A stretch of DNA of 64,000 bases from an uncultured bacterium (GCA_964387845.1 CAYLXA010000003.1:32001-96000), one strand, 5' to 3'; positions 37,266 through 59,243 are shown, counted from the stretch's first letter. Numbers and translations: made by a program. The notes: generated by a model from the letters alone, not told the origin.

Positions 37266-38228
37266 TTAGGATTTTTTTCGGGCAAGAACTTTTTCGACTG
37301 CTTTGAGGATACCGGCGGCGGTGAGGCCGTACTTTTCCATCAAACCATCCGGCGATCCGGATTCGGCGTAAGTGTCTTGAACGGCCACATATTCAATTGG
37401 TGTCGGACATTCCTCGGAAAGCACTTTCGCGACCACGCTTCCGAGGCCGCCGTAAATGGAATGTTCTTCTGCCGTCACAACGGCGCCGCATTTTTTGGCT
37501 TGAGCAACGACCAGCTCACGATCAAGCGGCTTAATGGTGTGAATGTCCACGACGGAAGCGTTAATTCCCTTTTCAGCCAATTTGTCCGCCGCAACAAGCG
37601 CTTCAAATACAAGAAGGCCGTTCGCAAAAATCGCGACGCTTGTGCCGTCTTTCAGCAAAACACCTTTTCCGATTTCAAATTTGGACACATCTGAGGCCGA
37701 ATAAACAAGCGGCGCTTTCGGACGCCCTGTGCGCATGAAAACCGGGCCTTTGTGTGCAACCATTTTCGCTGTGAGTCCCGCGGTTTCAAATTCATCGCAA
37801 GGGCCAAGCACAACAAAATTGGGCAAAGAAGCCGCGAGCGCGATATCTTCGATTGATTGCTGCGAAGCGCCGTCTTCGCCGATGGAAATACCGCAATGAG
37901 AACCGACGGCTTTTACATTTAATTCCGGAAATGCGACCGACATTCGAAGTTGGTCGTAAGTTTTACACATCAGAAACGTCGCGAAGCTGCTCATGCACGG
38001 AATAAATCCCGTAGTTGCAAGGCCTGAAGCGATACCCGCCATATTGGCTTCTTGAATGCCGCAATCAAAGAAACGATCCGGATGCGCTTTTGCGAAAACA
38101 TCGGTCTTTGTGGATTTTGCAAGATCGGCGTCCAGGACGATTACATTCGGGTTTGATTTGCCGACTTCGGCGATCGCCTTGCCGTACGCATCACGCGTTG
38201 CGGCGCCCATTTTACGTTCGCGGCTCAT
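37266..38228 (-). CDS. Transketolase, C-terminal (pyrimidine-binding) subunit
   Basis: 320 aa; split-transketolase B-chain motifs; overlaps N-terminal subunit gene by 4 nt. Confidence 0.9.
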   Translation of the reverse strand: MSRERKMGAATRDAYGKAIAEVGKSNPNVIVLDADLAKSTKTDVFAKAHPDRFFDCGIQEANMAGIASGLATTGFIPCMSSFATFLMCKTYDQLRMSVAFPELNVKAVGSHCGISIGEDGASQQSIEDIALAASLPNFVVLGPCDEFETAGLTAKMVAHKGPVFMRTGRPKAPLVYSASDVSKFEIGKGVLLKDGTSVAIFANGLLVFEALVAADKLAEKGINASVVDIHTIKPLDRELVVAQAKKCGAVVTAEEHSIYGGLGSVVAKVLSEECPTPIEYVAVQDTYAESGSPDGLMEKYGLTAAGILKAVEKVLARKKS

Positions 38229-39070
38229 AACTTCACCGCATTGAGTTCGGCTAAAGCTTTCTTTTCTTCTTCAGCCGTCGGCGCGACACCGTGGAAATGA
38301 TTGTTATTTTCCATAAACGAAACGCCCTTGCCTTTGACCGTATGCGCGATTAAGCAAATGGGTTTGCCTGATATTTTCTTCGCTGATTCCAAAGTTTTCA
38401 CAACTTCTTCCATGTTATGGCCGTCAAATTCGACGACATGCCAATTAAACGAGCGCCATTTGTCCGCGAGCGGTTCCATGTTGAGAATTTTCTCGGTAGA
38501 GTCCGAAAGCTGATATTTGTTGTAATCAATGATCAAAACCAAATGATCGATTTTGTGGTGCCACGCAAACGCAGCGCCTTCCCAGGTTTGGCCCTCGTCC
38601 ATTTCACCGTCCGACATCATGACGTAAGTCCAATAATCTTGCTTGCGAAGTTTTCGCGCAAGTGCCATTCCGATTCCGATCGATAAACCTTGGCCCAGCG
38701 AACCTGTGGATGCTTCAACGCCCGGCACGCGGCGGCGGTCCGGATGGCCCTGCATCGGGCTTCCGAGCTCGCGAAATGTCAAAAGCGTGTCGACTGAAAA
38801 ATATCCCGTACGCGCAAGAGCCGAATATAAAACCGGCGACGCATGGCCTTTGCTTAATATGAAGCGATCGCGGTCCGGCCATTCGGGATTTTTGGAATCA
38901 TGTTTGAGAATATTGAAATAGAGCGCGGTCAAAATATCAGTCGCAGAAAGCGAGCCGCCGGGATGTCCGGAGCCTGCTTTTGCCGTCATGCGGATGATGT
39001 CTTTTCGGATTTCGAGGGCGTGCTTTTTTAAATCCGGAATTGATACTTTTTGCATCTCTTTTGCTTGCAT
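38225..39070 (-). CDS. Transketolase, N-terminal (TPP-binding) subunit
   Basis: 281 aa; GHPGGSLS, MMSDGEMDEGQTWEGAAFA TPP-binding motifs. Confidence 0.9.
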   Translation of the reverse strand: MQAKEMQKVSIPDLKKHALEIRKDIIRMTAKAGSGHPGGSLSATDILTALYFNILKHDSKNPEWPDRDRFILSKGHASPVLYSALARTGYFSVDTLLTFRELGSPMQGHPDRRRVPGVEASTGSLGQGLSIGIGMALARKLRKQDYWTYVMMSDGEMDEGQTWEGAAFAWHHKIDHLVLIIDYNKYQLSDSTEKILNMEPLADKWRSFNWHVVEFDGHNMEEVVKTLESAKKISGKPICLIAHTVKGKGVSFMENNNHFHGVAPTAEEEKKALAELNAVKL

Positions 39071-42731: not shown

Positions 42732-45700
42732 TTACGCCGCTTTTCCAAGTACGGCGCGGCTAAAGAGCGTATGCATGAGTGAGCTGATAAATTCCGAGCT
42801 CGGATCGATCACGTCGCCCAACGAACGGAAATTGAACGAATCATTATGAGCGATTAGAAGCTGCGCAGCCTCAACGGCTCCCGGTCGGCCCAAAACTTTT
42901 GGAATATCACGCCGCGTGAGTTTTGAGAATAAATCGTGCTCGCCAATGGCCACAATCCGAGTCGTATCGCCTTTTGCATTGAGTTCATGTTTTAAGCGGT
43001 CGATTAAAATATTGTACGCTTGATCCGCCGAAAGTTCGCGGCCGACACTCAAACGCTCGCGCGTATAAAGCTGCAAGCGCGATCTTTGCCCGCTTTGCTT
43101 GCCAAAAATGTCGGCGTTTGGAAATAACTCTTCAACAGCCCTTTCGGCAACAAATGTGTTATCAAATTCGGAAGCGACAACCGAAAATTCGATTTTTGAA
43201 CCGGGATTTGCACTCATATCCGCCAAAATCGCTTCGCGCAATTCCGAACGGTTCTTCAATTCCTCAAACGAGATTACAATATTCCCCTTCACGTTTGACG
43301 GAATGCTTGCTTGATTCGCTTCACGCCTCAATTCAGACCGGGATTCTTGAGTTTCACCAAAAACCGCCTTAAGTCGATCCAAATATTGTGTCCGGTAAGC
43401 GCCCTCCGGAAAGTCTTCCAACTCGTCGGGATGGCTGCGGGCGGCGTCTGCTTCCTGTTCGACCTCATCGCCAACCCGTTCATCCTCTAAATATTCTTTG
43501 ATCACCTTCGTGGCCGCTTCAAGCTGTGCTTGGGTAATTCCCAATCGTTTAGGTGCTTCCAAATAAATTGCGATCGGTGTTTCATATATTGTGAAAAGCG
43601 TGGTGGCGGTTATCCGGCTTGAAAAATGATTCGCCGGATTATTTTCTTCACCAATCCAATAACGGACACCTGCCTCGATCAAAGGCAGTGTCAAGCCGAG
43701 CAATATTCGGCTTGGGCCTTCATGCAAGCCGGCAGCGTGATTTAAAACTGCGTGTTCAAGATGAAAAGAACTGTTGTCCAAACGGCTTTCAAAATGATCT
43801 TTAAATTCATTCCGGATATGCTCGATCAATGCCTCATCGCTTGTGCGCAATTCAGAGCGGGATTCGTCCTTTCGTACAAGAGCGCTCTTCCAGCCTCTTG
43901 ATTTTTGGCCGTCAGCGCCAACCGCCATCAGCATGTTGCCAAGTTCGTACGTTTGTAAATTGGTCCTGCCAAATACAGCATTTGTTAAAATTTTTACTTG
44001 CACACTTTTATCTTCGATTTCTGAAATTACTTTTAAGATTGGATTAGCATTGGTTAAAGCATCTTTAATGATCCACCTCGCTAAATATTTTGGAAACTTT
44101 AAGAAAAATTCTTCTTGTTCCAGAAAAGTCAAATCAGAAAATTTTTCATCCAAAATTCTGATCAATTCATCCGTTGTTTTGACCTCGCCAAATCTTGGCC
44201 AAGCCGGGAAGTTTTCCTGAATAAATTCTTGTATTTTTAAAACTCTTTGTGCATCGTTAGAAAATTTTTGTCCTTTTGTTGCTTCTGAGATTAACTGATT
44301 TGTCAGAAGGCGTGGATTTTCTATTTGATATAAATTCGAAATTTGAATTCTTTCATCTTTGGATAATTCCGATATTTTCTGCCGAAGACGGCGTTCTAAA
44401 TCCATATCTTTTTCAGGATCAATAAAGGGCAATTCGTAGAATGAGGCGTCTGCTAAATCAGGATGATGACGGGTTAAATAAGTCAGTAAAATATCTTGGA
44501 TGCTTCTGTTTTCCAAAGGTACGTTGCCATCGCCAAATTCCCGCACTAAGAGTTCTTTTTTATTTGAATCACCAGATATTAATAATCTATTCGAGGCATC
44601 AATAAAAACTTCCGGAATAATTCCGGGGAATGCGAGAACAATCTCTCGTCCTTGCCGGAAACTATTCGGCTGAAATTTTTCCTGTGCCCAATCCGGAATA
44701 TCAGTTCTTCCCCAAAGTCCGCCTGCTTCACCCATAAAATCCCGTTTTAATTCTCTTTCTAAAGACTCAAATGAAACACCAGCGCGCAAAAGCCAGCTTA
44801 ATTTGGTCCGCGCTTTCGAGAAAGTCATGTGATAAGGAATATTAATGGCGCCTGATTGCGAAACATTTGAAACAACAGGGATTTTCTTCCTTTTCAAACT
44901 TTGAATAGTAGCCCTGATATATTCGATCTCGGGGTTCTTTGAAAAATCGCCCTGGATAACAAGTCCTGCCCGAACGCCGGCTTGCTCTGCGTGCCGCTCG
45001 ATTCGATTGCCGGCTTGAAAGAGCACCAGCGCAGGCGTTGTTTCATCTATAAGCAAATGCTCAACATAACCAAATTCTTCATTTTTATGAAACTTTGGTT
45101 GTTTTTCTAGATTGGCCAATTTGCTGCTTACTGTTTGTAAGAAATCCATATCGAAACTGATATTTCCCTTGGAATCAACGGCGCCGATTGCTTTTCCATA
45201 ACTAGCAAAAAGACTCCCTTTTGAAGACGAGTCCGTTCTGATCTTCGAAATAAGACTTCCGAGATAGATTTGACTGTCAATGACAACATAGACCAAATTT
45301 GGAATATCTGTACGTTTTGCAACTTCTTCAGCTGCTTTCAAATTTAATATCTTTTCCTTTTCATTAACCGTGGAAGATCCTGTTAAAACAATTCGTGTCG
45401 GTAATGATCCATCAAATTCAAGCGAAAGAACCAGGCCTGTTTCTGCCAAGGTGTCGGTTCCGTGCGTGAGGATAATTCCACCCATTTCTCTTTGAGAAAC
45501 CTTGATCTCTTCGGCTAATGTCGTCTTCCTCGAGATTTCATCTTTGATATGATCAATTATTTTTTCCCATTCTTTCGGGCCAATATTCGTACTATCCGGA
45601 TTTTTATCGAAAACACTTTTGTAAAAAACAGTATTCTTTAAATGCGTTAATAAAACTCTTACCGCATCAACAGTCTTCCGCGCAAATTCGCCGATCATAT

Positions 45701-48700
45701 CAATCGTTCCGCCGGCATTTAAGATTGAAACGCCGGACAATTCTTTCTGAAGTTCTGCAATACTTTGCCCGCTGCGCAATTCGGATCTCACGTTTTCTTC
45801 AACCGGCTCTTCGGCATTCGGCTCATCGAGCTGTTTCAAGACGCGGTTTGTGGTAGCAATCGAATCTTCAAAAACGCCCAGCTCTTCCTTCGCTTTTTTC
45901 AATTCTAATAATTCCCTTGCCTGATCTTCAGGAAGTTCGACAATCCGGTCTTTGATTTCCAAAATCTTTTCAAGTCTGTCCGGACTAACGCCCAGCGCTT
46001 TCCTTAAAAATGCGGAATCTTTTAAATAATCAAAGAGCTTTTCGACCGCTTTGGCCATATCAAAAGGAGGAAGGATTTTGATGTATTGATCAATGTCGGG
46101 TGTTTTGTTTTCCCATGCATCTTTCAAGATCGTCACATTCTGGACTATTTTTTTCTTCGTTCCCTTTCCTCCCTTCACCGGAGCATCCACAATCTTGGGT
46201 GCCAATTCGATGCCGGTTAAACGAGCTATTTCCGGCATCCTGGATTCTTTGTTATAAAGCTCTTTTCTAACCCGGTAAGGCAGCCGCATAACCAGATCTG
46301 CATGAATACGAGCTCTTAATAGTGCTTTATACTCAGGGCTTCCGAATTCAATCGGTTTTTCGGGTTCAGGCTCTTGCGTGACAGAGGAATTTTCGAATGA
46401 ATCGACTAATGGGGTTTTTCCTATGATCGCCCGGGGTATCTCCAAACGCCTATTCGTTACCGCTGCCTGGCGAGCGTTTTTAGGTAAAAATTTATCGGCG
46501 AAATGCGGCGGATACGGATCCGCATTAAGTTCTAGAACCGTTTCGCGCCTAATCCCATAAATTAAATCTGAAGTCACATTCAATATTCTCGCCAACTTGC
46601 CCACTAATCTAGTAACTTCGGTGAATTTGACTTGTTTACTCCCGGAAAGCACTGCGTGAACATGCCCATAGGTTTCTTGTATTTGATTAAAAAGCTCGCT
46701 GGTAGTGATATGAGTAATGCCTCTTGCTTCAACAATGATTCTAATTCTGTCCCAATATGTCAAACTTGGATCAAACAAAGATTCGATAATGGCTGGCGTA
46801 AGAGCATAAATCGTCCATTGATCAACCGGAGATGCTCTTTCAATTTCCGAGACAAATGGTGGTTGCTGTTCTGGTTGGGGCGCTTCGGAAGCAGTTTCTG
46901 GAGTACTATCAATGTTTTTTAGCATTTCCGACAATCTAAGCGGCAACATTTCTTCTGCAGTTTCTTCTATCGTACCCGTCAGGGGTTGTTCTTCTGTTTC
47001 TGAGGGTTTAGCTTCAGTCAAAACTTCTTGTTTTACCAACTCAAGTTCTTGCTCGGTAGTCAAACCCAATCGTATGGAAAACTGTTCAAAGAGCATGATT
47101 TCTGGCCCTAAGATCCTTCTGATTTCTTTACCCTCTTCGCTTTCAGGAGTGTGGAGCAATTGTGCAAACTCCAAAGTATCTACTAACACTTCCCGGCTGG
47201 CAATACGCGGCCCCCCAAATGCGGGGTTGGTCGGCGGTACAAACAATAAACCTCGGTCAATCATATGCTGCAATGCTTCACCCATACGGGCTCCGCCGAT
47301 CGTGGTACCGAGCCGCGGATGCCAAACGACGTCCTGCGATTGGCCTTCCGATTTCGTATAAATTTCTTCCCAAAGAATCAATGCAATCAAGAGAGGCGCC
47401 ATTATCCTGCCTTTGTTCGGCCCGCTTTTGTATTTGAAAAGAACGTCGGGATCCTTCAGTAAAGTATCGGGAAGCAGATATTCTTTCACTGAAAATTTCA
47501 AATATTCTTTCAATGCGGCTTGATCCACGGAAAGATTTTCAAACGGTTGGTCTGGATTTCTGTTTAAGATTGCTTCTTCAATTTTTTTGCGAACCTCCGC
47601 ACCCATTTCATGATCAACTTCGAGCTGATTTTTGCTGTTAAACAATGATTCAAAATCCAACCCCACATGATTCGTGTATTCAGACATAGCTTCTACTTGC
47701 CATGGCTCTAGCTTTTCTGAAAGCCATTCGTGCACTTGCCCTACTCGAATGGTAACGTCCCGGTATTTTTCATCAGAATAAATTTGGTCAACTAATTTGC
47801 TAATTTCTTGAGGGTCTTCTTCTTTGATTGTCTTGAAAAATAAGTTTTCAAGATCGGCATCTCCCGTCAAATGATGAAGCAGCATATACCGAAGAATTGT
47901 TTTTTGCGTATTGCCTGCAAACCGCATTCCTCTCACAGTATCTGAATCCCTCATCTTAGTAATCGCTTTCATGGAGGAGCGCCGGATATTACCATGCATG
48001 CGCTCGACTGCCTGGCGATTAAGTCCGAAAATCAAATAAAGATCGATGATCATAAGCTGGGTTTCAACTGGAAGAGCTCCGCTTTGCTCGAAGCTTCTCT
48101 CAACAGCTTTATCAATCAATCCAATTTGACCTTCAATCAACAAATGTGTACGCCGGCTCGAATCCATCATCGATTTCAAAAGCTTCAATCGGTGGCCTTC
48201 GGCTAACGCTAAATCACGAAATTCGATCTGAAGCGTTGTGCTGCGATTCATTTCTATCTGGCGTGAAAAAACTTTGTCCAGTTTTTCAAACGCTTTTTCC
48301 AAGTCTATCTTTGCCTGGCCGATCAACTCTTCCGCAAGCTCCGGTTCGACTTGATCCACCAAGTGATCGGCTTGGTTTAGTTTTGCTTTTGCCTGGCCTA
48401 AATAATATTTAAACCATTGCTTATAAACTTGGGTTGAAATGTCTTCATAGATAGAACGTAAACGCCAATAAGCTTCTCCCCATTTGCTGGATGTTTGGCT
48501 CTCTTTAAATGAATCATCGTCCAAGAATGTTTTTACGGTTACGGCAACCTTCATCATGGTTTCGTAAAATAAATTAATTCTTGCTTGTTGAATGGAAATA
48601 TCCGATGCGCCGGATAGTGACTTGAAGTCTTTGTGCAAACGCCCGTAAACAGGAGATGTTCTGCTTTCAAAAAATATAGACTCTTTATTTTTAATATCCA

Positions 48701-51700
48701 AAAGAGAAAGCAAAACATCCAACTTTTTTAAGACGGTGTTGAGATGTCTGTTTTGAAGAATGGGCGGGATTCTGGCCGTTAAAGCATGGGCGCCTTCCAA
48801 CCATGAATAAAACGCATTCCGCTCATCAGAAGTTCCCATTAAATCGATAAATTCATCTAATTCCTTTTTTAACTTTACCAAGCTATCAAAGTGGCGAACC
48901 AGGTCGGAATTCTTCAAATCCGAAAGAAATGCATCTAGAAAAGCAGATGATTGAGACGCTATTTTCAACTGCTCTTCAAGTTTCGCCCGGCTTTCGGCAG
49001 TATTTTCGGAGGCCAATGCAGTCAAGGCAGTTTGGCGTAAAGCAGAAATGGATTCTACCTCGATAAACTTTTTGGCCAACTCGTCAATTTTCTGGATTCT
49101 CTGAATAATTTTTTCACTGCGGGTTTTCCGAACAAAAGAAACGGTTTCATTTTCATTTGATTTAACAATCAAATTTAAAATTAACGGCAGGGCTTCCTTT
49201 CTGAAGAATTTGCCCACGATTTTCCGGATCTCATCCAGTTTTTCTGACCGTCCTTTTTCCGGATTATTGGCAAGTTGATTAATGCTCAAAATTCCTTCGT
49301 CAACTTCAAGAAGCCACGAAAATACAGTTTCTATTTCACTTGCGGTGCCTAGATCAGAAATAAATTTTTCAAACCGGCTTTGGATTTCTCTCAGTTTGTG
49401 ATAAGCATCCCTGTTCTCACTTTCGGTAAGACCGTCAAATATTTTTTTCAGAATTTCAAAAGATTTTCTTGCTTCCGATCCAATATTTTTAAGATCTTCA
49501 AACCCTGCAAACGCCGTTTCGATGTCGAATTCCCCGTCACTTGAAGCAGGAATTAATTTGGATAAAACAAATGAGTCTAGATCGGAAAACCATGCGTCTG
49601 AAAAAAATGCTGCATATTGGGGCGCTGCGGCCGCATAAGTAGTTTTGCTGCGTGTGATTTGAGACAGTAATAAATTCCCGCGGCTATTCGCTGATTTCCA
49701 GCTGTTCATATTCATGCTTTCAAGCGAACGCAATTCTGATTTCTTGCTTTCAGCCGCATTCAACGTTTCGGCAATGAACGTTTTCATTACGCGATAGACA
49801 TATTCGGTTTGCTCTTGGGTAGGTTCGCTATTAAGAAAACGATCATAGAATTTGGCGGGATCCGAACCGCGCGGGTAAGCCTGTGAATAAGACAAAAGCC
49901 AGGCGCCAATAATAGATTGTCTAAACGTTGGAAGAGGAAGTTTTTTTAATTGTACGCCGCGGAGGCCGATGTTGACGAAAATAGCCGGCACATTTGCATC
50001 AAATTCTTTCCAACGGCGAAGGCGATGAATCGGCGCAAACCGGTCAAGCTCGCCCTTCCAAGGAATATAATCAATCTTCAAATCCTGCCCGTCGACCGTA
50101 ATTTTTTTCAAATCTTTGAGCAATTCCATAGCTTTAGAAGTGGCAATAATGCGGATCGGAGCGCGCGTTTCGCGAGGGCGTCTTTCCATAAACGTGATAT
50201 GCCAATCCATCATAAACGGAATATCGGGAAATTTTTGATGCAGGACCTGCATGAATTTTTCTCCGATTGGCGCCGGAATAGATTCAAAATTAGGCTGTGA
50301 ATCCGGTTTAATCTCGGCTATCAATTCTTCCGAAAATGCAGCCAACATTTTTTTGAATAACTTGTCCCGCTCTCCATGAAATTCGAGACGTTTTTGAAAA
50401 TCTGCGGCGCCTGCCGACATTTTTCGTTTCGTGCTCAAGCGCCGCTTTTTTCTTTCAGAAGGCCAATCTTTTTCTGCGTCATTTGTGATACGCTTTTGAA
50501 CAATATGCAGCAAGCGACTATTGATTTCATTACCGATTAAACCTTCCCGATCGGAAGCTTTGCTGAAATGAAAGTCGATCAAATTTAAACTGCTCTGGTC
50601 ATCACTTGTTTCAATTGCACGATCAATATCTTCTATCACTTTTTCCAATGTTTCAACAAACCACCGTTCTTTATCTTTGGAATATCGCTTTGACGCGGCC
50701 CCGTGCTCAAAAATTCTTCTCCCTTCTCTTCTATAAGCTTCGAGCATCCGCATAACACCCCGGTAAATCAAGTTGGTCTCGCCGACCGGCGTAAAAGACG
50801 ATCTCCACCTGCCGATTGCAGCATACCCGCCAAATTCTTGTTTCAAATCACGAATCATTGCTGCCGTGCGCTCCAAAGGATAATCACGATCAGTCAAGAT
50901 AAGCGGTGCTGTTCCTTCGGAGGATTTGACCGATTCCAGCAATTGAATTGCAGAACCAATGCTTTCCGGGAACAAATCTTCCGGAGCAAGCAGGCCCAGC
51001 TCAAACATGATTTGATTAAAAATGGTGCGCTGAGGGCCTCTCAGGCCTTTTATCCATGGATCTTTTTCGTAAATGGGCCGGATGCTTTTTGCGGTGATAT
51101 TGCCGTCTTCATCGCGATATTGATTGAATATATCGTTTTCGATTAAATATTCGATCGTGTTGTTTAAATAATCATACTGACGTAGCGTATCGGTCCATAA
51201 CAATAGAAGAAAAACAAGTTCGGGAGCCGGTTTTTGAAAGGGCATGAGCTGCTCGATTAATTCGTCGGATTCAAGAACTTTTCGGTAATAATCGACTAAA
51301 TTTTCAAATTTGGGATCTTTTATTTTATATTCTCCGCGATCAAACTTGCGAATAACTCTCCTAAGCACTATTCGAACGTCGTGCTTGAGCAGGGCTTCAT
51401 ACGCATACAACACACGTGATATTTTGTTGTCATAATCCCACGACGGATTTTTAGCAAAATCACTCTCGATCGCGATAAGGGTCCTAGCAATCAAACTTGC
51501 TGCATACATATTAGACCCCGGCAGCGGGTTGCCATACATGAGATCGGTTACATTTGGATGGACAATGTTTCCTGCGCGATCTGTCTCATCATTGGAAACA
51601 ACTTCATTGGGGAACACCTGATCCATAATAGCTTCACGGCTTCGAGTCCTCCGGTATTCTTCCCGTGCCCATTCTAAACGTTTTTTAAGTTGCCACCCTT

Positions 51701-54700
51701 TCGACCCTATTCCCAAAACAGACAACAACATCGCAATTGCATAATCCCGATAACCGACGTTTCCGACCATTTCAAACCGCAGCCTTGGATTGATTGCACG
51801 ATTCAGCCGGCGTACTACTTTTCGAAGAGAATGTTCATTTGCGTATTGAAACGCCGGAATTTTAAGTGCGATCGTGCTTGGAAGGCCCGCCTTCTCTTTA
51901 ATAGCACGCTCGTAATGATTTTCTTGCTCGTTTTCCGCTAATCCTGATAAAGCATGAAATATTTTCCTTTCGGCAGAATCCTCAGACTCCAAATAAGCAT
52001 GCCAAGCACGAGATTCAAATCGCCCCCACAAGTTTCCAAGTCCATGAAATTGGCTTTGAAATGCAAAAACCTGGCTTGCGCTCGCCATTTTATTTAGATG
52101 ATAACTGGCTTCGACAAGTTGACGATAAATATCGGGCAGGCCTTTTGAAGGCGTCATTTTGTACCGTTCTAGAGTTTCAAATGCGGCGTTCTTATGATAA
52201 TCAAAATAGAATTCGTGAATGCTTATGATTAACTCTCTGGTTTTTTCTTTAAAAACATCAATGGCGTGCGATTTCCCAAGCCCCATTGCGAGATCATAAA
52301 ACGATTGGAAGTACCGCGATAACCCCTCTGAGACTGCAAACCGGAGTCTCGCGTCGGTCTTGGATTTTTCGAGCAACGTATTTGTTATATCGCGAACAGG
52401 TTCAAAGAACACTTCCAACTTTGATTCGACGTTACTCTTTTTATTTCTTTTTGTACTGCCCTTTTTGATGTTGGCTGTCGCCAAACTAATTAAAAATTCT
52501 TGTGCGGTCTTTTGAGAAAAAGAATTGATGATGTGTTCCCACAAAAATATTGGTACTTTGATTTTAGATTTTGCACTCTGCACTAAATCTAAAAACATCC
52601 TTTCGGTCATTCTTTTATGATTGAAATTTTTTACGGGCAATACACGCACGCCGGGAATCGACTGAATTAAGAAATAGCTTTCTCTTTGGTCCTTATCTCC
52701 GCTTGTTTCTAACTTGCGGCTCGTAATGAGTTTGACTCTCGCAATAATTTTTAAGTCTGTTTGTTCTCCTCCGCGTGCAATCAAGAAACCATCTTCACGG
52801 CTTGGATTTAGTTTTATATCAAATTTTAAATCGTTTTGATTCTTTTCGCCGATGATCTGTTGGATTTTGTCCAAATCTTTCTGCCGATGCCATGCGGATC
52901 TGATTCCGACAAGAGAACCGCCCACCGATTCAACTCGCACTCTTGATATTTGTTTAGGGACAGATTCAACACGAATATGCATTGATTCGGTATTGCCATC
53001 CTCGTCAAAAACAACTGTAAATGTGCGACCGTGGCCAACTGAAACTAACTGCCGACCCACAAATCTTTTGGTACCAATCCGCTTCGCTTGAGAGATCAAT
53101 GCATCATCCGATCTGAGTTCAGACTTTTTTGTGGCCTGTCTTATTTCAAAATACTGCTGATAAAGTTCCTGAAAACTCGGCGTTTCCTGGATTTCAAGTT
53201 CGATTTCTCTAGCCATGTCCACTGCAGTGTCATTCAGAATATTTTCGTATGCACCAGCATCATAAGCTTTCTGTGAATCCTTACCGATTTCGTCCAGCCA
53301 TTTCCTCTCTGCCGGAATCCAGTCTTTATAATCATAAAAAATACTTTCGACATCCTCATAGGCCGTGAAGCGGATTAATTGTTTAAGAATAGCTAAAACC
53401 GCAGGGCTTACCGCAACGCTAATTGGAACATTGGCGTATTTACCTTTCATGTAGATTAAAAACAGCATGAACCGCCGCCAGCCAGCCATTTCGCCGCAGA
53501 TACTGACTTCCAACCCTGCCGCGCTCGCATGCTCAATGATTGTTTCGATCTTTTCAAGAAATGTGGAAAGCAATTCTGTGTACAATCTTCCGCCATATTC
53601 ACGGTCCCGGCCGAATGTTTGTTGCAATAAATCATTGGTGCCGATAGAAATAAAATCGACGTATTTCTTCTGTGCGATCACCGGAAGATTTTCAATGGCT
53701 TTGTTGGTTTCGATCATAATTCCGAACGGAATTTTGATCCGGAAGCGATTAAGATCGTGACGAAATTTTTCTAACTCCTGATCAAAGATAGTCCGGACAA
53801 ATATTACGTCATCCTCAGTTTGAACCATCGGTACAAATACTTTGACCGCAGATTCTCTTCCGGTTTCTCCTTCGGCGTGAAAATGCTCTGCAGCCATAAT
53901 GCTCGCGCGAATTGCCGCTCGAATTTGAGCTCTCAAGATCGGTTCGCCTTCCGTAGGATCCCTGTAAAGATCGAACCCGATTTTTGTATTCGTTTCTGAA
54001 ATGGCTGAAACAGGCTTGTCCAGCTGACGGTCTAACGTTCTTACCGCAAATGCGCCACGTAAGATAATCCTGCCCTGAGATAATATTTGAGTAAGATCGT
54101 CTTCATATTCTTTTATATTTGCTTCCCAGGATTCGTGGCGGTAGAAATGCGTAGGGAAATTGACTTCGGTTCGATAGAGCCGCACACCATCCGTATCTGC
54201 GGAAAGCTCTTGAATATGTTCAAGCGCATCCGCACTTCCGCTAACTTCCATCAACAGTGAAGCAACGCTGTCTTTCTTTGCAAACACAGGTTCTAGTGCG
54301 AGGGTTTTTGCCAATTGCAAATACGCTTCTTCCTTGACGATTTTCTGTTCATATTCGGCAGCATCTTTTTGTGAAGGATTGGCATGCAGCATTCCGTTTT
54401 CCCCGTCCGCATAAATGATTTGCCCTGACTTGATATCTGCAAACTTACCTAGTTTGGCCTTGAGCGCGGTAAGAACTAAGATCCCGTAATTAGCGCCGAC
54501 AATAACCCAATGTTCGGTGGGAGATCCAAACTCGGCTACAACCGCACCCAAATTTGGGTAAGCTTTTTTTAGACTTAAGAGAGTCGGCGCATTCATCGCT
54601 CCTGCCAAATACGGCTGTTCTTTTGAGACTTTTAAAATAACCACCAAATGATCAACTTTATCCGTCGTAAATTGCTGATCCGACACCAATTGCCGCGCCA

Positions 54701-57700
54701 TTTTTTCGTTTAGAATCAAAACTGCGTCTTTTAAAAGAACTAAAATATTTAGCAGCGTTTTCTCCTGAAGATCGGATGTGTCTTCAGAACTCATCTTGGT
54801 GCCGATATCCAAAATCAACTTTTGATAAGCATATTGGAGCGCAACATCAGGATACACATTTTTTGTATTGATTAACCAGCTGGTTTCTTCTTGAAATCGA
54901 TCAAGAAGCTCTTGAAATGAATACTTATCCGGCATGTTGTCGACAGGCGCTTGATCAACTAATTGGTCAGCCGCTGATTGAAATGCGCTTGCTATTTGAT
55001 CGTTGTATTCTTTGATTTTCTCTTGATAGAGTTCCTCGGACATTCCTTCCATTTTAAAAGACTCGCCATAGCTCAAAAAACTCATCATCCGGTAGAGCGT
55101 GGAAAGGATTTCCCTATTTCGAGCCTTGATCTGTTTTTCTTCATCCGTGCCCTCGGTTCCCTTGAGAGATTCGATGGCATTATGGATATCTTTAACAATT
55201 CTAGGAATTGGCTGGCCGGCTTTTTCAAGCTGTGTATAAGCATTGGGGTGCGCATACAACTTAAACGCATCGAAATATGAGATTTTTTTGTCCTTCAAAG
55301 ATTCCATCACTAATTTTATTGAATCGGTGTTATATTTAAAAAATTGCCATGTGATTTCTAATGCTTTTGCATCACGCAGACGCCCTTTTTGCTTTAGATC
55401 CCGAATTCTAATTTGAAAATCGAAATTAAAAATATCTAGAATCGCTTTAAAATGTTGCACATCACGTTCGGCAGCTTCAGGGCTAAGAATGGCAGGCTGT
55501 TTAAATTTGCTGCTAAATTTTTCCAAACTCTCTCCTAGCGCTCTGCTCGACCACAAATAGTAAATCTGAAAACCAACGCTATTCACTTTTGATTTAATTT
55601 CTTCTTCAAGAAGATGATCCGCTCTTTTCCCTTCGCTTTCTATTTTTTCCAGAACAGAATCTTTCAATTCGTCTAAAACTTGCAGTAAATTTTTGTTCGA
55701 TTGGTCTTCTTCCAAAATCATCCTGTCTATCTTTTCTGAAAATTTTACCTTTTCGATTCTTATCTTTTCTTGAACATCTGGTTCTTCATCCAAATTCGAT
55801 CTCAACGAATAAGCAGCTGTAAAAAAGTCGTCTGCCTGGAAAAGCATCGTGGTGCCTCGAAATACACGCCGGGCCTGATTTTTATTGCCCTGCATCAGAA
55901 CGGTTCGAAGTTCTGATCTTTTTTCCGATTCGCCTTCGGCATCACTTGTTTTGCTTTTGGATTTTTTCTCTTCGATCATTTCTTCAATGAGATCCAGCAG
56001 ATCTGTTAGTTGAGGGGGCAAAACTCCTTCGATTGCGTCCATGCTCAGCCCTGTATTCGCAATCACTCTTGCGATTATTTCGAGAGCGCTGTTTCCTGTA
56101 GAAACCGGATTTGCATTTATAATTGCCGCTATTTCCTCGTCATTTACTGATTCTTCTTTCGGGTCAAAATAAGAAGCGATTCCGGATTGCGCAGCAGGTT
56201 TTTCGGATTTGTTTTCTGCTGCTTGAGGTTGGGTTTGCGGCTCTGCCGGCTGTGCTGATTTGGCTTTTTCAATGACGAGTTGAAAAAAAGCGTCTCTCTG
56301 GTTTTGCTTTATCGATTTGAATTGATCATTTATAAACTTAGCGAAGGTCGATCCTGCTCTTAAGGGAAATTTATTCACGCTCGGATTCCCTTGTTTATAT
56401 TCGCTTGCCAATGCGCCACTCTTGTTAGCGTCTGTGATAATTGTCCGCTCAATTTCTGTTAGGTTGCCTTCCTTCCCCTCGGCAAGTTTCACAACGCCGG
56501 AAAAAAATGCTTCCACGTTTGCCTGCTGCGTCATATCTGCCGGAACTCCCGCCGCCCAATCGATCAATTTTTGGATTTGCGAATTGACAGCCCGCAATTC
56601 AGAACGATCGTTCTTCTCAGATTGTTGAGAAGGTTGTATAGAAACTGCATACGAGGCCAATTTCGAATCATCAAAATATGCCCTATCAATAAACTTTTCA
56701 AAAGTGGCTTGCCAACCGTCAGGGTTGTAGTAATACTCGGGCAACGATTTTCCTGATTTTGCTTGCACTTCGGATGCAAACCTGAGCAAAGCTTGTTGGA
56801 TAGGAACAAGAAACCGGTTATCAAAATTCTCCGCCGCTGTCCCCGGATTATTTTTGTTGATCAACGCACGCGTATATCCCAATTGCAGCGTCATTAGTTT
56901 CAAAATGTATCTTGATTTTTTCCAGTTCTTATCATTTGCGGCATCACGAAATCTCGATGAATCATAATGAAGGCGCGTTAATGTTGCCGCAAGTGATTCC
57001 GGATATTGATCCCTGGAGACATAGCGGACTTTAAGCCAATCAGATGCAACATCATCTAAAAATACCGAAACAACTCTGTGGGGAGTTTGTTCAATAACAA
57101 CCGACTCTGGATCCTTGAAACCAACCACCCCATTCTCATAAGCAAGATGGCCGACTTCGTGATACACATGATAATCGCTTACCCATTCAAATAACCGTGC
57201 CCTGTCTTCCTTATTTCCAATCTCACCGTGGTGGATAATTTGATGCTGGAGCATTGCCATTCTGAGTGAAATTCGGAGTCTGCGATAAGTTTCGTCATAA
57301 ATTAACGAAAATCCTGTATTGTCAGCCATAGATTCCGAATCTTTCATTTCAGCCGAAAAATTGATAGAGGGTGTCTCTAAAAATTTCTTCAACTCTGCCG
57401 GTAACTTTTCATAACTCTCAGAGGTTCGGCTTATCATCAAAAACGAATCCAAAATCTCTTCCATACTTAAATTGAGCTTCTTGAGTTCGCGATAAATCAT
57501 GATTAGCATAGAAAAAATATTTTGGCTTAATTTGTCAGGAAATTTACTTGTTGAAGATGGGATATAAAGGAATGATGATTGACCGCCTCGATAGGCCGAA
57601 ATAATAACATCAATTGGCCTTGCAAAAAGCCATCTTGAAAAGTAAATAAGCATCACTTGTGTAAGTTTTTTGATTTGAGACAGGTTGGGAAATTCTGGTT

Positions 57701-59243
57701 GTAAACGCAATTCCGATCTGTGTGAAATTGGATCTGCAGAATTAAAATATTCCTGCGGATTAAAATCCGAATTAAAAACTTGAAGCGGATTTGAGATGGC
57801 GGAAGATTTTAGAAACTCTTCGAACTTGGGTTTTAGTTTCTCAAAAGTTGGTGTTTCACCGTTCATGCGTTCGTAATAGCGGTCGTAATCCGTTTCCGGA
57901 GAAACTTGCGGCGAAATCAAAACAAACGGAATGTTTTCCTTTCGGAATTTTTCGGTTAGGTCTTCGGCATGAAAACCGCCGGTGACGAGGATAATGCCGG
58001 AGCCCGGCGGTAAAGGGTAAGCGTTAGGCGTTAAGTCTGACTTATCGCTTAACGCGTAACGCTTAACGCTATTTAAGAATGCTTCATCGCGTCTTTTGCT
58101 GGTGGTATAAAACTGTTCAGCAACATTGAGTTTTTTCGGATCTAGTTTTCCTTTGAGAAATTTTGTAATTTCTTTTTTGTGCTGTTGGTAAAATAGAAAG
58201 TCTTCCGGAGTTGCCTGCAGCGAAACGAGCGCTTTAACGGATTTTAAATATTCGCCTTCTTCATGAAGCCCTTCCTCACCTTTTCCGGAAAACAAACGCT
58301 CACGGACACGGTCTTTGAAAAGACTAATTTCACGAAACAAATTTACAGCACCGATTTCGCGGCTGATTCTTTCAAATTCTTTCTTCTCATCTATTTTTTC
58401 GCCGGCTTTCACACCCGTTAAACTGCGCTCCAATAGAACAAGCGATATTAATTTCTCAATCTCATACAAATCCGAGCGCTTGACGCCTTCGTTGCGCCCA
58501 ATATTCGCTAAATGAGAGATCAGCGAAATTAATTCGCCGCGCTGTTCGTATAAGCCCGTTTTTGTTTCGAATTCGAGCAAGCGCTTGTTGTACGTTTTCT
58601 CTTTCGCTTCCTGATTTTCTTTAAAAAGAAAATGGACGGCGGGCAAAAGTTCTTTTTGCACTTCAAGTGCTTTTAAAAATTCCTTCCGGTTTGAATCATA
58701 AAGTGCCGCATCTTCGGCCCCGATTAACTCATAGGACTTGGGGTTTAAAACGGCTTCTGCTTCAATGCCGGTTAAAATAACCTGCTCAAGCCAAAATCGG
58801 GTGGCGAGTTCTTTTACTTTTTGGTTAGGATAATTACGAAATCTGAAAAGATCTGCAGTGCCGGATGCGCCCTCGGCTAAAATCGTGCGGACGCCGAATT
58901 TTTCCGATATAAGCCTTGCGATCTTCTGAATATTCTGCTGAGCGCCCAGGTTTGCGTGAGCATCTTGGATGTAAAAAACTATAGGGGCAAGGGTCATGGG
59001 TCCAGGGTCAAGGTTCGTTCCTTGACCCTTGCTACTTGCTACTTGACCCTTCGGAATAAAGACTTCCGAGACACGCCCCAGAGCTTCTGGAATTAAATTT
59101 CCAAAATCCTGTTGATTAGATATGGGTCTTTGGTAATCAAGAGGCGCTGCATGAGAGATGTCTGCCCAGATAAACGCCACGATTAGGACAAACGCAATAA
59201 TGCGGAGAGCCGGAGAATATTTTTTGTTTTGGGGGAAAAACAA
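42732..59243 (-). CDS. Giant multidomain protein (5,503 aa) with N-terminal signal anchor, HExxH, PEP-utilising-enzyme-like and asparaginase-like modules, nine [RK]SELR motifs
   Basis: Single uninterrupted 16,512-nt ORF; TTG start preceded by GAGGTG; hydrophobic segment LRIIAFVLIVAFIWADISHA; YHVYHEVGHLAYENG; DGVRLYRTEVNF / FISIGTNDLLQQTFGRDREYGG / SICGEMAG; LNAGGTIDM / ILTHGTDTLAETG. Confidence 0.85.
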   Translation of the reverse strand: MFFPQNKKYSPALRIIAFVLIVAFIWADISHAAPLDYQRPISNQQDFGNLIPEALGRVSEVFIPKGQVASSKGQGTNLDPGPMTLAPIVFYIQDAHANLGAQQNIQKIARLISEKFGVRTILAEGASGTADLFRFRNYPNQKVKELATRFWLEQVILTGIEAEAVLNPKSYELIGAEDAALYDSNRKEFLKALEVQKELLPAVHFLFKENQEAKEKTYNKRLLEFETKTGLYEQRGELISLISHLANIGRNEGVKRSDLYEIEKLISLVLLERSLTGVKAGEKIDEKKEFERISREIGAVNLFREISLFKDRVRERLFSGKGEEGLHEEGEYLKSVKALVSLQATPEDFLFYQQHKKEITKFLKGKLDPKKLNVAEQFYTTSKRRDEAFLNSVKRYALSDKSDLTPNAYPLPPGSGIILVTGGFHAEDLTEKFRKENIPFVLISPQVSPETDYDRYYERMNGETPTFEKLKPKFEEFLKSSAISNPLQVFNSDFNPQEYFNSADPISHRSELRLQPEFPNLSQIKKLTQVMLIYFSRWLFARPIDVIISAYRGGQSSFLYIPSSTSKFPDKLSQNIFSMLIMIYRELKKLNLSMEEILDSFLMISRTSESYEKLPAELKKFLETPSINFSAEMKDSESMADNTGFSLIYDETYRRLRISLRMAMLQHQIIHHGEIGNKEDRARLFEWVSDYHVYHEVGHLAYENGVVGFKDPESVVIEQTPHRVVSVFLDDVASDWLKVRYVSRDQYPESLAATLTRLHYDSSRFRDAANDKNWKKSRYILKLMTLQLGYTRALINKNNPGTAAENFDNRFLVPIQQALLRFASEVQAKSGKSLPEYYYNPDGWQATFEKFIDRAYFDDSKLASYAVSIQPSQQSEKNDRSELRAVNSQIQKLIDWAAGVPADMTQQANVEAFFSGVVKLAEGKEGNLTEIERTIITDANKSGALASEYKQGNPSVNKFPLRAGSTFAKFINDQFKSIKQNQRDAFFQLVIEKAKSAQPAEPQTQPQAAENKSEKPAAQSGIASYFDPKEESVNDEEIAAIINANPVSTGNSALEIIARVIANTGLSMDAIEGVLPPQLTDLLDLIEEMIEEKKSKSKTSDAEGESEKRSELRTVLMQGNKNQARRVFRGTTMLFQADDFFTAAYSLRSNLDEEPDVQEKIRIEKVKFSEKIDRMILEEDQSNKNLLQVLDELKDSVLEKIESEGKRADHLLEEEIKSKVNSVGFQIYYLWSSRALGESLEKFSSKFKQPAILSPEAAERDVQHFKAILDIFNFDFQIRIRDLKQKGRLRDAKALEITWQFFKYNTDSIKLVMESLKDKKISYFDAFKLYAHPNAYTQLEKAGQPIPRIVKDIHNAIESLKGTEGTDEEKQIKARNREILSTLYRMMSFLSYGESFKMEGMSEELYQEKIKEYNDQIASAFQSAADQLVDQAPVDNMPDKYSFQELLDRFQEETSWLINTKNVYPDVALQYAYQKLILDIGTKMSSEDTSDLQEKTLLNILVLLKDAVLILNEKMARQLVSDQQFTTDKVDHLVVILKVSKEQPYLAGAMNAPTLLSLKKAYPNLGAVVAEFGSPTEHWVIVGANYGILVLTALKAKLGKFADIKSGQIIYADGENGMLHANPSQKDAAEYEQKIVKEEAYLQLAKTLALEPVFAKKDSVASLLMEVSGSADALEHIQELSADTDGVRLYRTEVNFPTHFYRHESWEANIKEYEDDLTQILSQGRIILRGAFAVRTLDRQLDKPVSAISETNTKIGFDLYRDPTEGEPILRAQIRAAIRASIMAAEHFHAEGETGRESAVKVFVPMVQTEDDVIFVRTIFDQELEKFRHDLNRFRIKIPFGIMIETNKAIENLPVIAQKKYVDFISIGTNDLLQQTFGRDREYGGRLYTELLSTFLEKIETIIEHASAAGLEVSICGEMAGWRRFMLFLIYMKGKYANVPISVAVSPAVLAILKQLIRFTAYEDVESIFYDYKDWIPAERKWLDEIGKDSQKAYDAGAYENILNDTAVDMAREIELEIQETPSFQELYQQYFEIRQATKKSELRSDDALISQAKRIGTKRFVGRQLVSVGHGRTFTVVFDEDGNTESMHIRVESVPKQISRVRVESVGGSLVGIRSAWHRQKDLDKIQQIIGEKNQNDLKFDIKLNPSREDGFLIARGGEQTDLKIIARVKLITSRKLETSGDKDQRESYFLIQSIPGVRVLPVKNFNHKRMTERMFLDLVQSAKSKIKVPIFLWEHIINSFSQKTAQEFLISLATANIKKGSTKRNKKSNVESKLEVFFEPVRDITNTLLEKSKTDARLRFAVSEGLSRYFQSFYDLAMGLGKSHAIDVFKEKTRELIISIHEFYFDYHKNAAFETLERYKMTPSKGLPDIYRQLVEASYHLNKMASASQVFAFQSQFHGLGNLWGRFESRAWHAYLESEDSAERKIFHALSGLAENEQENHYERAIKEKAGLPSTIALKIPAFQYANEHSLRKVVRRLNRAINPRLRFEMVGNVGYRDYAIAMLLSVLGIGSKGWQLKKRLEWAREEYRRTRSREAIMDQVFPNEVVSNDETDRAGNIVHPNVTDLMYGNPLPGSNMYAASLIARTLIAIESDFAKNPSWDYDNKISRVLYAYEALLKHDVRIVLRRVIRKFDRGEYKIKDPKFENLVDYYRKVLESDELIEQLMPFQKPAPELVFLLLLWTDTLRQYDYLNNTIEYLIENDIFNQYRDEDGNITAKSIRPIYEKDPWIKGLRGPQRTIFNQIMFELGLLAPEDLFPESIGSAIQLLESVKSSEGTAPLILTDRDYPLERTAAMIRDLKQEFGGYAAIGRWRSSFTPVGETNLIYRGVMRMLEAYRREGRRIFEHGAASKRYSKDKERWFVETLEKVIEDIDRAIETSDDQSSLNLIDFHFSKASDREGLIGNEINSRLLHIVQKRITNDAEKDWPSERKKRRLSTKRKMSAGAADFQKRLEFHGERDKLFKKMLAAFSEELIAEIKPDSQPNFESIPAPIGEKFMQVLHQKFPDIPFMMDWHITFMERRPRETRAPIRIIATSKAMELLKDLKKITVDGQDLKIDYIPWKGELDRFAPIHRLRRWKEFDANVPAIFVNIGLRGVQLKKLPLPTFRQSIIGAWLLSYSQAYPRGSDPAKFYDRFLNSEPTQEQTEYVYRVMKTFIAETLNAAESKKSELRSLESMNMNSWKSANSRGNLLLSQITRSKTTYAAAAPQYAAFFSDAWFSDLDSFVLSKLIPASSDGEFDIETAFAGFEDLKNIGSEARKSFEILKKIFDGLTESENRDAYHKLREIQSRFEKFISDLGTASEIETVFSWLLEVDEGILSINQLANNPEKGRSEKLDEIRKIVGKFFRKEALPLILNLIVKSNENETVSFVRKTRSEKIIQRIQKIDELAKKFIEVESISALRQTALTALASENTAESRAKLEEQLKIASQSSAFLDAFLSDLKNSDLVRHFDSLVKLKKELDEFIDLMGTSDERNAFYSWLEGAHALTARIPPILQNRHLNTVLKKLDVLLSLLDIKNKESIFFESRTSPVYGRLHKDFKSLSGASDISIQQARINLFYETMMKVAVTVKTFLDDDSFKESQTSSKWGEAYWRLRSIYEDISTQVYKQWFKYYLGQAKAKLNQADHLVDQVEPELAEELIGQAKIDLEKAFEKLDKVFSRQIEMNRSTTLQIEFRDLALAEGHRLKLLKSMMDSSRRTHLLIEGQIGLIDKAVERSFEQSGALPVETQLMIIDLYLIFGLNRQAVERMHGNIRRSSMKAITKMRDSDTVRGMRFAGNTQKTILRYMLLHHLTGDADLENLFFKTIKEEDPQEISKLVDQIYSDEKYRDVTIRVGQVHEWLSEKLEPWQVEAMSEYTNHVGLDFESLFNSKNQLEVDHEMGAEVRKKIEEAILNRNPDQPFENLSVDQAALKEYLKFSVKEYLLPDTLLKDPDVLFKYKSGPNKGRIMAPLLIALILWEEIYTKSEGQSQDVVWHPRLGTTIGGARMGEALQHMIDRGLLFVPPTNPAFGGPRIASREVLVDTLEFAQLLHTPESEEGKEIRRILGPEIMLFEQFSIRLGLTTEQELELVKQEVLTEAKPSETEEQPLTGTIEETAEEMLPLRLSEMLKNIDSTPETASEAPQPEQQPPFVSEIERASPVDQWTIYALTPAIIESLFDPSLTYWDRIRIIVEARGITHITTSELFNQIQETYGHVHAVLSGSKQVKFTEVTRLVGKLARILNVTSDLIYGIRRETVLELNADPYPPHFADKFLPKNARQAAVTNRRLEIPRAIIGKTPLVDSFENSSVTQEPEPEKPIEFGSPEYKALLRARIHADLVMRLPYRVRKELYNKESRMPEIARLTGIELAPKIVDAPVKGGKGTKKKIVQNVTILKDAWENKTPDIDQYIKILPPFDMAKAVEKLFDYLKDSAFLRKALGVSPDRLEKILEIKDRIVELPEDQARELLELKKAKEELGVFEDSIATTNRVLKQLDEPNAEEPVEENVRSELRSGQSIAELQKELSGVSILNAGGTIDMIGEFARKTVDAVRVLLTHLKNTVFYKSVFDKNPDSTNIGPKEWEKIIDHIKDEISRKTTLAEEIKVSQREMGGIILTHGTDTLAETGLVLSLEFDGSLPTRIVLTGSSTVNEKEKILNLKAAEEVAKRTDIPNLVYVVIDSQIYLGSLISKIRTDSSSKGSLFASYGKAIGAVDSKGNISFDMDFLQTVSSKLANLEKQPKFHKNEEFGYVEHLLIDETTPALVLFQAGNRIERHAEQAGVRAGLVIQGDFSKNPEIEYIRATIQSLKRKKIPVVSNVSQSGAINIPYHMTFSKARTKLSWLLRAGVSFESLERELKRDFMGEAGGLWGRTDIPDWAQEKFQPNSFRQGREIVLAFPGIIPEVFIDASNRLLISGDSNKKELLVREFGDGNVPLENRSIQDILLTYLTRHHPDLADASFYELPFIDPEKDMDLERRLRQKISELSKDERIQISNLYQIENPRLLTNQLISEATKGQKFSNDAQRVLKIQEFIQENFPAWPRFGEVKTTDELIRILDEKFSDLTFLEQEEFFLKFPKYLARWIIKDALTNANPILKVISEIEDKSVQVKILTNAVFGRTNLQTYELGNMLMAVGADGQKSRGWKSALVRKDESRSELRTSDEALIEHIRNEFKDHFESRLDNSSFHLEHAVLNHAAGLHEGPSRILLGLTLPLIEAGVRYWIGEENNPANHFSSRITATTLFTIYETPIAIYLEAPKRLGITQAQLEAATKVIKEYLEDERVGDEVEQEADAARSHPDELEDFPEGAYRTQYLDRLKAVFGETQESRSELRREANQASIPSNVKGNIVISFEELKNRSELREAILADMSANPGSKIEFSVVASEFDNTFVAERAVEELFPNADIFGKQSGQRSRLQLYTRERLSVGRELSADQAYNILIDRLKHELNAKGDTTRIVAIGEHDLFSKLTRRDIPKVLGRPGAVEAAQLLIAHNDSFNFRSLGDVIDPSSEFISSLMHTLFSRAVLGKAA

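Follow-up and report, generated by a model that had tools for sequence, protein, structure and literature searches.

A whole asparaginase-like protein within a giant ORF

A stretch of DNA of 64,000 nucleotides (nt) from an uncultured bacterium (GCA_964387845.1 CAYLXA010000003.1:32001-96000; the whole stretch is referred to below as the window) carries on its minus strand a giant open reading frame (ORF) of 5,503 amino acids (aa), located at positions 42732..59243 and starting with TTG. Nine copies of a short motif, [RK]SELR, delimit 10 units of 30 to 1,318 aa in the encoded protein, and the seventh of these (unit 7; ORF aa 4491-5133, window 43845-45773, about 640 aa) is related to L-asparaginases. 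Judging from its sequence, unit 7 is probably an active Thr-nucleophile amidohydrolase, carried as a whole-protein unit of a polyprotein-like chain. An earlier note on this DNA had proposed an L-asparaginase/glutaminase-like module at 44700-45720. That observation was confirmed, and the asparaginase-like reading with its catalytic threonines is supported; the proposed interval covers the N-terminal domain and the first C-terminal domain, which make up only about half of a unit that runs on to 43845. All features of the giant ORF described below are on the minus strand. The translation of the plus strand over the flagged interval is riddled with stops.

The asparaginase-like character of the unit was borne out by Pfam, by phmmer searches of the PDB, by Foldseek and by NCBIfam. 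The N-terminal domain matched PF00710 over module aa 15-183 (numbered within the unit) with an E-value (E) of 7.1e-20, scoring 71.8 bits where the cut-off is 22.5. The family of the C-terminal domain, PF17763, which had been suggested as a check together with PF00710, gave only 17 bits against a cut-off of 34.6, and here the domain was recovered by profile-profile comparison, as described below. A phmmer search against the PDB returned 58 sequences of the asparaginase superfamily, nearly all of them L-asparaginases or glutaminase-asparaginases, together with one GatD; the best match was 1wls from Pyrococcus horikoshii (4.7e-9). The whole unit was modelled with AlphaFold2 on the basis of 10 sequences, which gave a mean predicted local distance difference test (pLDDT) value of 78.6 and a predicted template modelling (pTM) score of 0.82. 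When this model was compared with the PDB using Foldseek, the top 50 matches were all L-asparaginases (template modelling score of 0.60-0.74 on the target, about 375 columns), with 1wls at 6e-13.

Both motifs cited in the earlier note were found on the minus strand. AGGTIDM, taken there as the nucleophile motif, lies at 45696-45716 (ORF aa 4510-4516), and the HGTDT-type motif is present as HGTDTLAET at 45438-45464 (ORF aa 4594-4602). The placement of the module directly after an RSELR motif was roughly right, as the motif ends 17 residues ahead of the proposed start and 19 ahead of AGGTIDM. The unit was also compared with the PROSITE-type asparaginase signatures, which we take to be [LIVM]-x2-T-G-G-T-[IV]-[AGS] and G-x-[LIVM]-x2-H-G-T-D-T-[LIVM]. 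The segment ILNAGGTID departs from the first of these twice, with A in place of T and D in place of [AGS], neither position being catalytic; GIILTHGTDTL conforms to the second.

Among the curated NCBIfam models, the best score was obtained with type I asparaginase TIGR00519 (60.5 bits, 1.3e-16; cut-off 260.5). The GatD models followed, with TIGR02153 at 52.3 bits (3.7e-14) against 324 and PRK04183 at 50.4 against 310, and then the type II models, with TIGR00520 at 34.1 against 314.3 and PRK11096 at 31.9 against 506. The N-terminal domain of GatD is absent, as there was no match to PF18195 and the unit begins about 20 residues ahead of GGT. By these sequence comparisons, the unit is a member of the class 1 asparaginase superfamily that falls outside every curated subfamily (type I, type II and GatD).

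Domain architecture

Sequence and profile comparisons define a three-domain architecture for the unit, N - C - C'(insert). The N-terminal catalytic domain (module aa 14-227; 45093..45734) comprises the PF00710 region, and was matched by Foldseek and by hhalign against the N-domains of classical asparaginases (probability 100%, E=5e-45). The C-terminal domain that had been expected to follow it was found at module aa 228-350 (C1; 44724..45092), and corresponds to the classical C-domain (hhalign probability 98.7%, E=2.8e-16, 108 columns). C1 still has the KARTKLSWLL terminal helix as well as the GE end, and bears a family-specific GYVEH motif.

Beyond C1 lies a second C-like domain, C2, which is split by an insert. 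Its first half, C2a (module aa 372-428; 44490..44660), ends in EFGDGNVP, the counterpart of the classical GxGNxP, and its second half, C2b (module aa 560-632; 43878..44096), contains the motifs ARWIIKDA and YELGNML. When the two halves were joined (aa 372-428 and 560-632) and compared with classical C-domains by hhalign, the probability was 98.7% (E=3e-16), and in the phmmer comparison module aa 578-620, within C2b, aligned to residues 243-284 of 1wls. C2 thus retains the classical GxGNxP and Y-x-x-G motifs. The insert (about 131 aa; module aa 429-559; 44097..44489) sits immediately after GDGNVP, is helical and poorly conserved, varies in length among the relatives, and showed only generic resemblances to helical bundles. 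No description of the N-C-C'(insert) layout was found in a survey of asparaginases (PMC9500103).

Catalytic residues

The unit was aligned with six relatives and with Escherichia coli AnsA and AnsB, whose reference sequences are exact matches to PDB 2p2d and 1nns, respectively; conservation was calculated from an alignment of 31 family members. Thr23, in AGGTIDM (45705..45707), corresponds to the nucleophile T12 of AnsB, with Ala standing in for the non-catalytic T9. Ser61, in DSTNIG (45591..45593), corresponds to S58, which binds the substrate carboxylate. Thr106-Asp107, in HGTDT (45453..45458), and Lys177 (45243..45245) are the equivalents of T89-D90 and K162. All five residues are 100% conserved in the 31 members, including the copies in giant proteins. 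Of the two catalytic triads that were to be examined, Thr-Asp-Lys is therefore complete (T106-D107-K177), and both catalytic threonines are kept in the alignment with AnsA and AnsB. The Thr-Tyr-Glu triad is incomplete. No family member has an equivalent of the lid-loop tyrosine (AnsB Y25) after GGTIDM, a conserved Arg being found at the lid-loop position instead (R32, at least 90% in alignment A1), and no equivalent of AnsB Glu283 could be assigned in the C-domain, where the region aligns unreliably. In AnsB structures, the equivalents of S61 and D107 bind the carboxylate and amino groups of the free amino acid.

In two relatives, P0009 (aa about 185-890) and P0033 (aa about 1095-1762; locus L009 181-5988), the HGTDT strand-helix is shifted downstream by about 150 residues from where it normally lies. 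The displaced segment (CGTDTLSD or SHGTDTLSE) follows the Lys-containing strand and lies just ahead of GFVEH, an arrangement suggestive, in sequence, of a permuted segment in the catalytic domain.

Unit boundaries and the RSELR motif

The extent of unit 7 could be compared with that of stand-alone homologues, which are 640-750 aa long and span 95-98% of its length. According to alignment A1, these homologues start about 15-20 residues ahead of GGTIDM and end a few residues past a GW motif, and their termini fall exactly where the two RSELR motifs bound the unit in the giant ORF. Since the ends of the unit, the RSELR motifs and the termini of the stand-alone proteins agree, unit 7 represents a whole protein within the chain rather than one domain of a larger fold. 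This correspondence was established for the asparaginase-like unit.

The upstream junction of the unit is the RSELR at 45774-45788 (ORF aa 4486-4490; SELR at 45774-45785), and the downstream junction is that at 43845-43859 (ORF aa 5129-5133; SELR at 43845-43856). The other copies of [RK]SELR are found at ORF aa 509, 880, 1109, 2040 and 3168 (SELR at 57705-57716, 56592-56603, 55905-55916, 53112-53123 and 49728-49739, respectively), and, past the unit, at aa 5302 and 5332 (SELR at 43326-43337 and 43236-43247). Each is preceded by a short acidic or polar stretch. From the composition of the protein, 0.03 copies would be expected against the nine observed, and 20,000 shuffled versions contained 2 at most. 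The R, S and L codons vary synonymously across the nine copies, which points to selection on the peptide and rules out a DNA-level repeat or palindrome as the origin of the motif. Multiple motifs of the RSELR type occurred only in the window ORF and in P0035 among about 89 loci compared, and a literature search for RSELR gave only unrelated matches. From this pattern, the [RK]SELR motifs are candidate junction or processing signals.

The asparaginase-like unit was also found within other long proteins, namely P0035 (3,081 aa), P0036 (6,249 aa), P0037 (5,942 aa), P0030, P0033, P0048, P0061, P0052, P0046 and P0042. Five of these long relatives have, at the boundary of the unit, a motif that is repeated elsewhere in the same protein. 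P0035, from Ca. Abzuiibacterium (locus L007 6001-15246), contains eleven copies of [RKH][SA]ELR, with RAELR 8 residues after the unit. D-x-A-M recurs in P0030 (DQAM 4 residues before the unit and DFAM just after it), in P0036 (26 copies, with DDAM 10 residues after the unit) and in P0052 (DAAM after the unit), and P0037 has six copies of GFG-x-A, with GFGAA 22 residues after the unit. This suggests that the junction motifs are lineage-specific across giant proteins.

P0046 (1,430 aa) differs in that its asparaginase-like unit is followed by a homologue of unit 6 of the giant ORF, an order opposite to that in the window (compared regions: ORF aa 3205-4329 for unit 6 and 4724-5140 for unit 7). 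The arrangement points to module shuffling, and perhaps to a functional link between the two types of unit.

Distribution of the family

An exhaustive HMMER search with the family profile against 1.84 billion representatives identified 81 proteins at E<=1e-30, compared with only 10-11 relatives in word-index searches that used either the unit or its profile. The full-length matches are mostly stand-alone proteins of the length given above, and almost every look-up of a family cluster gave 1-4 member sequences, from metagenomes. By these searches, the asparaginase-like family is rare and uncharacterised. The 31 aligned members are 28-36% identical to the window copy and share near-invariant, family-specific motifs: GYVEH at the start of C1, R257, KARTKLSWLL, GFGDGNxP and YELGN.

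Among GTDB species representatives, only three loci encode true members, two in metagenome-assembled genomes (MAGs) of Omnitrophota and one in a MAG labelled Enterobacterales. The closest named relatives come from Candidatus Omnitrophica and Ca. Abzuiibacterium; because these are Omnitrophota, the bacterium that carries the giant ORF probably belongs to the same phylum. A search with 5,000 aa of the giant protein returned only the protein itself, so that no orthologue was found.

The gene neighbourhoods of P0002, P0007, P0008, P0009 and L010 have nothing in common. The only conserved neighbourhood seen was that of the close pair P0005/P0006 (loci L088 2520-4257 and L089 4397-6135), in which an ACT-domain protein (about 350 aa) and a protein of about 228 aa are encoded downstream. 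The latter gave weak TIR_2 and nucleoside 2-deoxyribosyltransferase-like matches, in L088 only (E about 1e-3).

Other units of the giant ORF

Pfam matches in the giant ORF were restricted to unit 7 and unit 4. Unit 4 (ORF aa 1114-2044; 53112-55904) resembles phosphoenolpyruvate (PEP)-utilising enzymes, with matches to PEP-utilizers_C (5.4e-37), HpcH/HpaI (1.5e-8) and, weakly, to a mobile domain around GSPTEHW.

The N-terminus of the protein (ORF aa 1-28; window about 59160-59243) carries K7, K8 and R14 and a hydrophobic stretch at aa 9-27, followed by SHA-AP; in these features it resembles a Sec signal peptide or an anchor. The stretch at aa 9-27 is the sole convincing hydrophobic segment in the entire protein. 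The N-termini of P0035, P0037, P0042, P0048 and P0061 are similar to this signal-like start.

Units 1 and 2 have no relatives in Pfam or the PDB. Unit 2 (aa 514-884) contains a HEVGH motif of the HExxH type (ORF aa 695-699; 57147-57161), from which it could be a metalloprotease and hence a candidate processing enzyme. Two of the long relatives, P0048 and P0061, have HEFGH inside a multi-transmembrane N-terminal region.

Function of the unit and alternative explanations

In the explanation that we favour, unit 7 would hydrolyse a side-chain amide through a threonine acyl-enzyme intermediate, as in classical asparaginases. A substrate of the Asn or Gln type is suggested by S61 and D107, the residues that hold the free amino acid in the classical enzymes. 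The chemistry of the lid is probably altered, since it has no tyrosine. The active site of class 1 enzymes is completed by the C-domain of the partner subunit (PMC9500103), and one may speculate that the extra C-domain of unit 7 stands in for it in cis. The 5,503-aa chain as a whole would behave as a polyprotein or as beads on a string, with RSELR as a peptide-level junction signal and possibly a processing site.

Several results weigh against this interpretation. The Thr-Tyr-Glu triad lacks its Tyr and an assignable Glu, and the scores against the curated models of type I, type II and GatD are all far under their cut-offs, so that substrate specificity cannot be transferred from any of these subfamilies. 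The neighbourhoods of the stand-alone relatives gave no consistent functional hint. P0046 joins units of types 6 and 7 without an obvious junction motif between them, and Pfam recognised no endopeptidase domain in the giant ORF, cleavage at RSELR being a proposal only. Finally, of the 72 highly conserved columns, 13 differ from the family consensus in the window copy, among the highest counts in the family (other embedded copies, 7-15; stand-alone copies, 0-6). It has lost the near-universal S-D ahead of the NL helix, which is replaced by K-E, it carries R174L, G412E and R567W, and it has a deletion of 3 residues. Relaxed constraint on this copy is thus possible. In a neighbour-joining tree, the embedded or fused copies cluster separately from the stand-alone clade, so their deviation reflects lineage at least in part, which weakens the idea that embedded copies are degenerate.

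If these deviations are taken at face value together with the absence of a Tyr25 equivalent, unit 7 could be a pseudo-enzyme or scaffold that has kept the asparaginase fold, lost efficient catalysis and serves in binding or as a structural part of the giant protein. We regard this as unlikely. The five alignable catalytic and substrate-binding residues are invariant in 31 divergent members, every embedded copy included, a pattern that would hardly be expected unless catalysis were under selection, and the missing Tyr is a trait of the whole family rather than a sign of decay in the window copy. The proposal of the earlier note that the module, if active and exposed at the surface, could deplete Asn/Gln or deamidate a partner or prey surface corresponds to an exported effector, acting on host or prey proteins or cell-wall peptides or starving the host or prey of Asn/Gln. 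The signal-peptide-like start, with no other convincing membrane segment in the protein, would fit such a role, as would the description of Omnitrophota as host-dependent or predatory bacteria with giant surface proteins (PMC10066038; 10.1101/2023.11.21.568195). Export is nevertheless improbable in our view: five stand-alone relatives (P0003-P0007) have no N-terminal signal segment, the PEP-utilising enzyme unit would be odd in an exported chain and makes little sense outside the cytoplasm, and S61 and D107 match residues that, in the classical enzymes, grip the carboxylate and amino groups of a free amino acid.

There is still less reason to see in unit 7 a GatD-like ammonia donor, i.e., a glutaminase or asparaginase that supplies a partner unit (a synthetase or transferase) with ammonia instead of acting in catabolism. 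The relative P0008 does adjoin genes for an amidase and an asparagine synthase, but neighbourhoods are not conserved, the score is far under the 324-bit GatD cut-off, the unit has no GatD N-terminal domain, and Pfam detected no GatE-like or synthetase domain in the giant ORF; we therefore consider this role very improbable. As for a chance resemblance of motifs or an artefact of assembly, only the shortness of the two motifs would speak for it, and its probability is negligible. Both were refuted by homology and fold (Pfam E=7e-20, Foldseek E=6e-13, hhalign of the N-domain E=5e-45) and by the finding of a protein identical to that of the giant ORF (P0012) both on a 228-kb NCBI contig and in an independent Logan assembly (SRR15237813, 29 kb), since an ORF assembled independently twice is not an assembly artefact. 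An active amidohydrolase thus remains the reading of unit 7 that we consider probable.

Comparison with known systems and the polyprotein model

The closest known counterparts of unit 7 are the type I L-asparaginases (1wls, P. horikoshii PH0066; E. coli AnsA, 2p2d), with which it shares the fold of the N-domain and C1 (Foldseek E 6e-13 to 1e-10), the nucleophile Thr, the Thr-Asp-Lys triad and the DS(S/T) substrate loop. It differs from them in the absence of the lid tyrosine, in its score (60 bits against a 260-bit cut-off), in the extra C-domain with a helical insert, which doubles its size, and in the motifs GYVEH, R257, GFGDGNxP and YELGN. GatD of the archaeal Glu-tRNA(Gln) amidotransferase (2d6f) likewise combines an asparaginase-type core with an added domain and shows a comparably weak similarity. 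However, the addition in GatD is N-terminal and unrelated, whereas that in unit 7 is a duplicated C-domain, and no GatE partner was seen. A class 1 core with a large C-terminal extension is also found in the mammalian 60-kDa lysophospholipase/asparaginase (guinea pig ASPG; 4r8k, 5dnd), whose catalytic domain was among the Foldseek matches. This mammalian extension, part of the native protein, consists of ankyrin repeats and is not a second asparaginase C-domain. The unit defines a rare, uncharacterised subfamily that combines an N-C-C' architecture with invariant motifs of its own and lacks the lid tyrosine, and such an enzyme may solve in a single chain an active site that is classically built across a dimer.

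MARTX toxins and viral polyproteins carry several independent functional units per chain, with short linker sites between them. The likeness of the giant ORF to these systems is an analogy of working principle only, in that multiple units would be contained in one chain. The window ORF differs from MARTX in that Pfam recognised no RTX repeats, no Peptidase_C80 domain and no other protease in any unit.

The giant proteins of Omnitrophota (10.1101/2023.11.21.568195; PMC10066038) resemble the window ORF in their very long ORFs, and relatives of unit 7 come from Omnitrophota-labelled MAGs. Those giants are repeat-rich, multi-transmembrane proteins of adhesin or carbohydrate-binding type, with C39 or S8 peptidase domains (10.1101/2023.11.21.568195). 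The window ORF, in contrast, strings together units that are the size of enzymes and not repetitive; it has one hydrophobic segment, at the N-terminus, and a short junction motif recurs along it. Post-translational cleavage of the Omnitrophota giants into several products was raised as an open question in the same study, in which the cleavage points were stated to be unknown. Neither this study nor 10.64898/2026.06.07.730766 mentions asparaginase or polyproteins, and a literature search combining 'polyprotein' and 'Omnitrophica' returned nothing relevant.

Because the ends of unit 7 are known from its stand-alone relatives, at least one class of giant ORFs consists of complete proteins concatenated via short, selected junction motifs. 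A bolder proposal, which we put forward tentatively and regard as possible though doubtful, is that the giant ORF encodes a genuine bacterial polyprotein, in which whole enzymes are translated together and a dedicated protease cuts at short, lineage-specific junction peptides (RSELR in the window ORF and in P0035 of Ca. Abzuiibacterium, D-x-A-M in P0036, P0030 and P0052, and GFG-x-A in P0037). If true, it would supply the missing 'cleavage points' of giant proteins of the Omnitrophota type, and the asparaginase-like enzyme would be a recurrent cargo of polyprotein chains. The RSELR-bounded unit makes the question of giant-protein cleavage directly testable.

Genomic context

The genes flanking the giant ORF are ordinary, and encode a GH1 glycosidase, a menaquinone biosynthesis protein (futalosine-pathway type), a PilZ protein, an M24 peptidase, a split transketolase and ThyX. 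In the ThyX ORF (35555-37111, minus strand; 519 aa), the Thy1 domain was matched in two stretches, which suggests a flavin-dependent thymidylate synthase that has been duplicated in tandem and fused. The transketolase (37269-39070, minus strand) is encoded by two adjacent ORFs with a 4-nt overlap, one for the N-terminal thiamine pyrophosphate-binding half (281 aa) and the other for the pyrimidine-binding and C-terminal half (320 aa).

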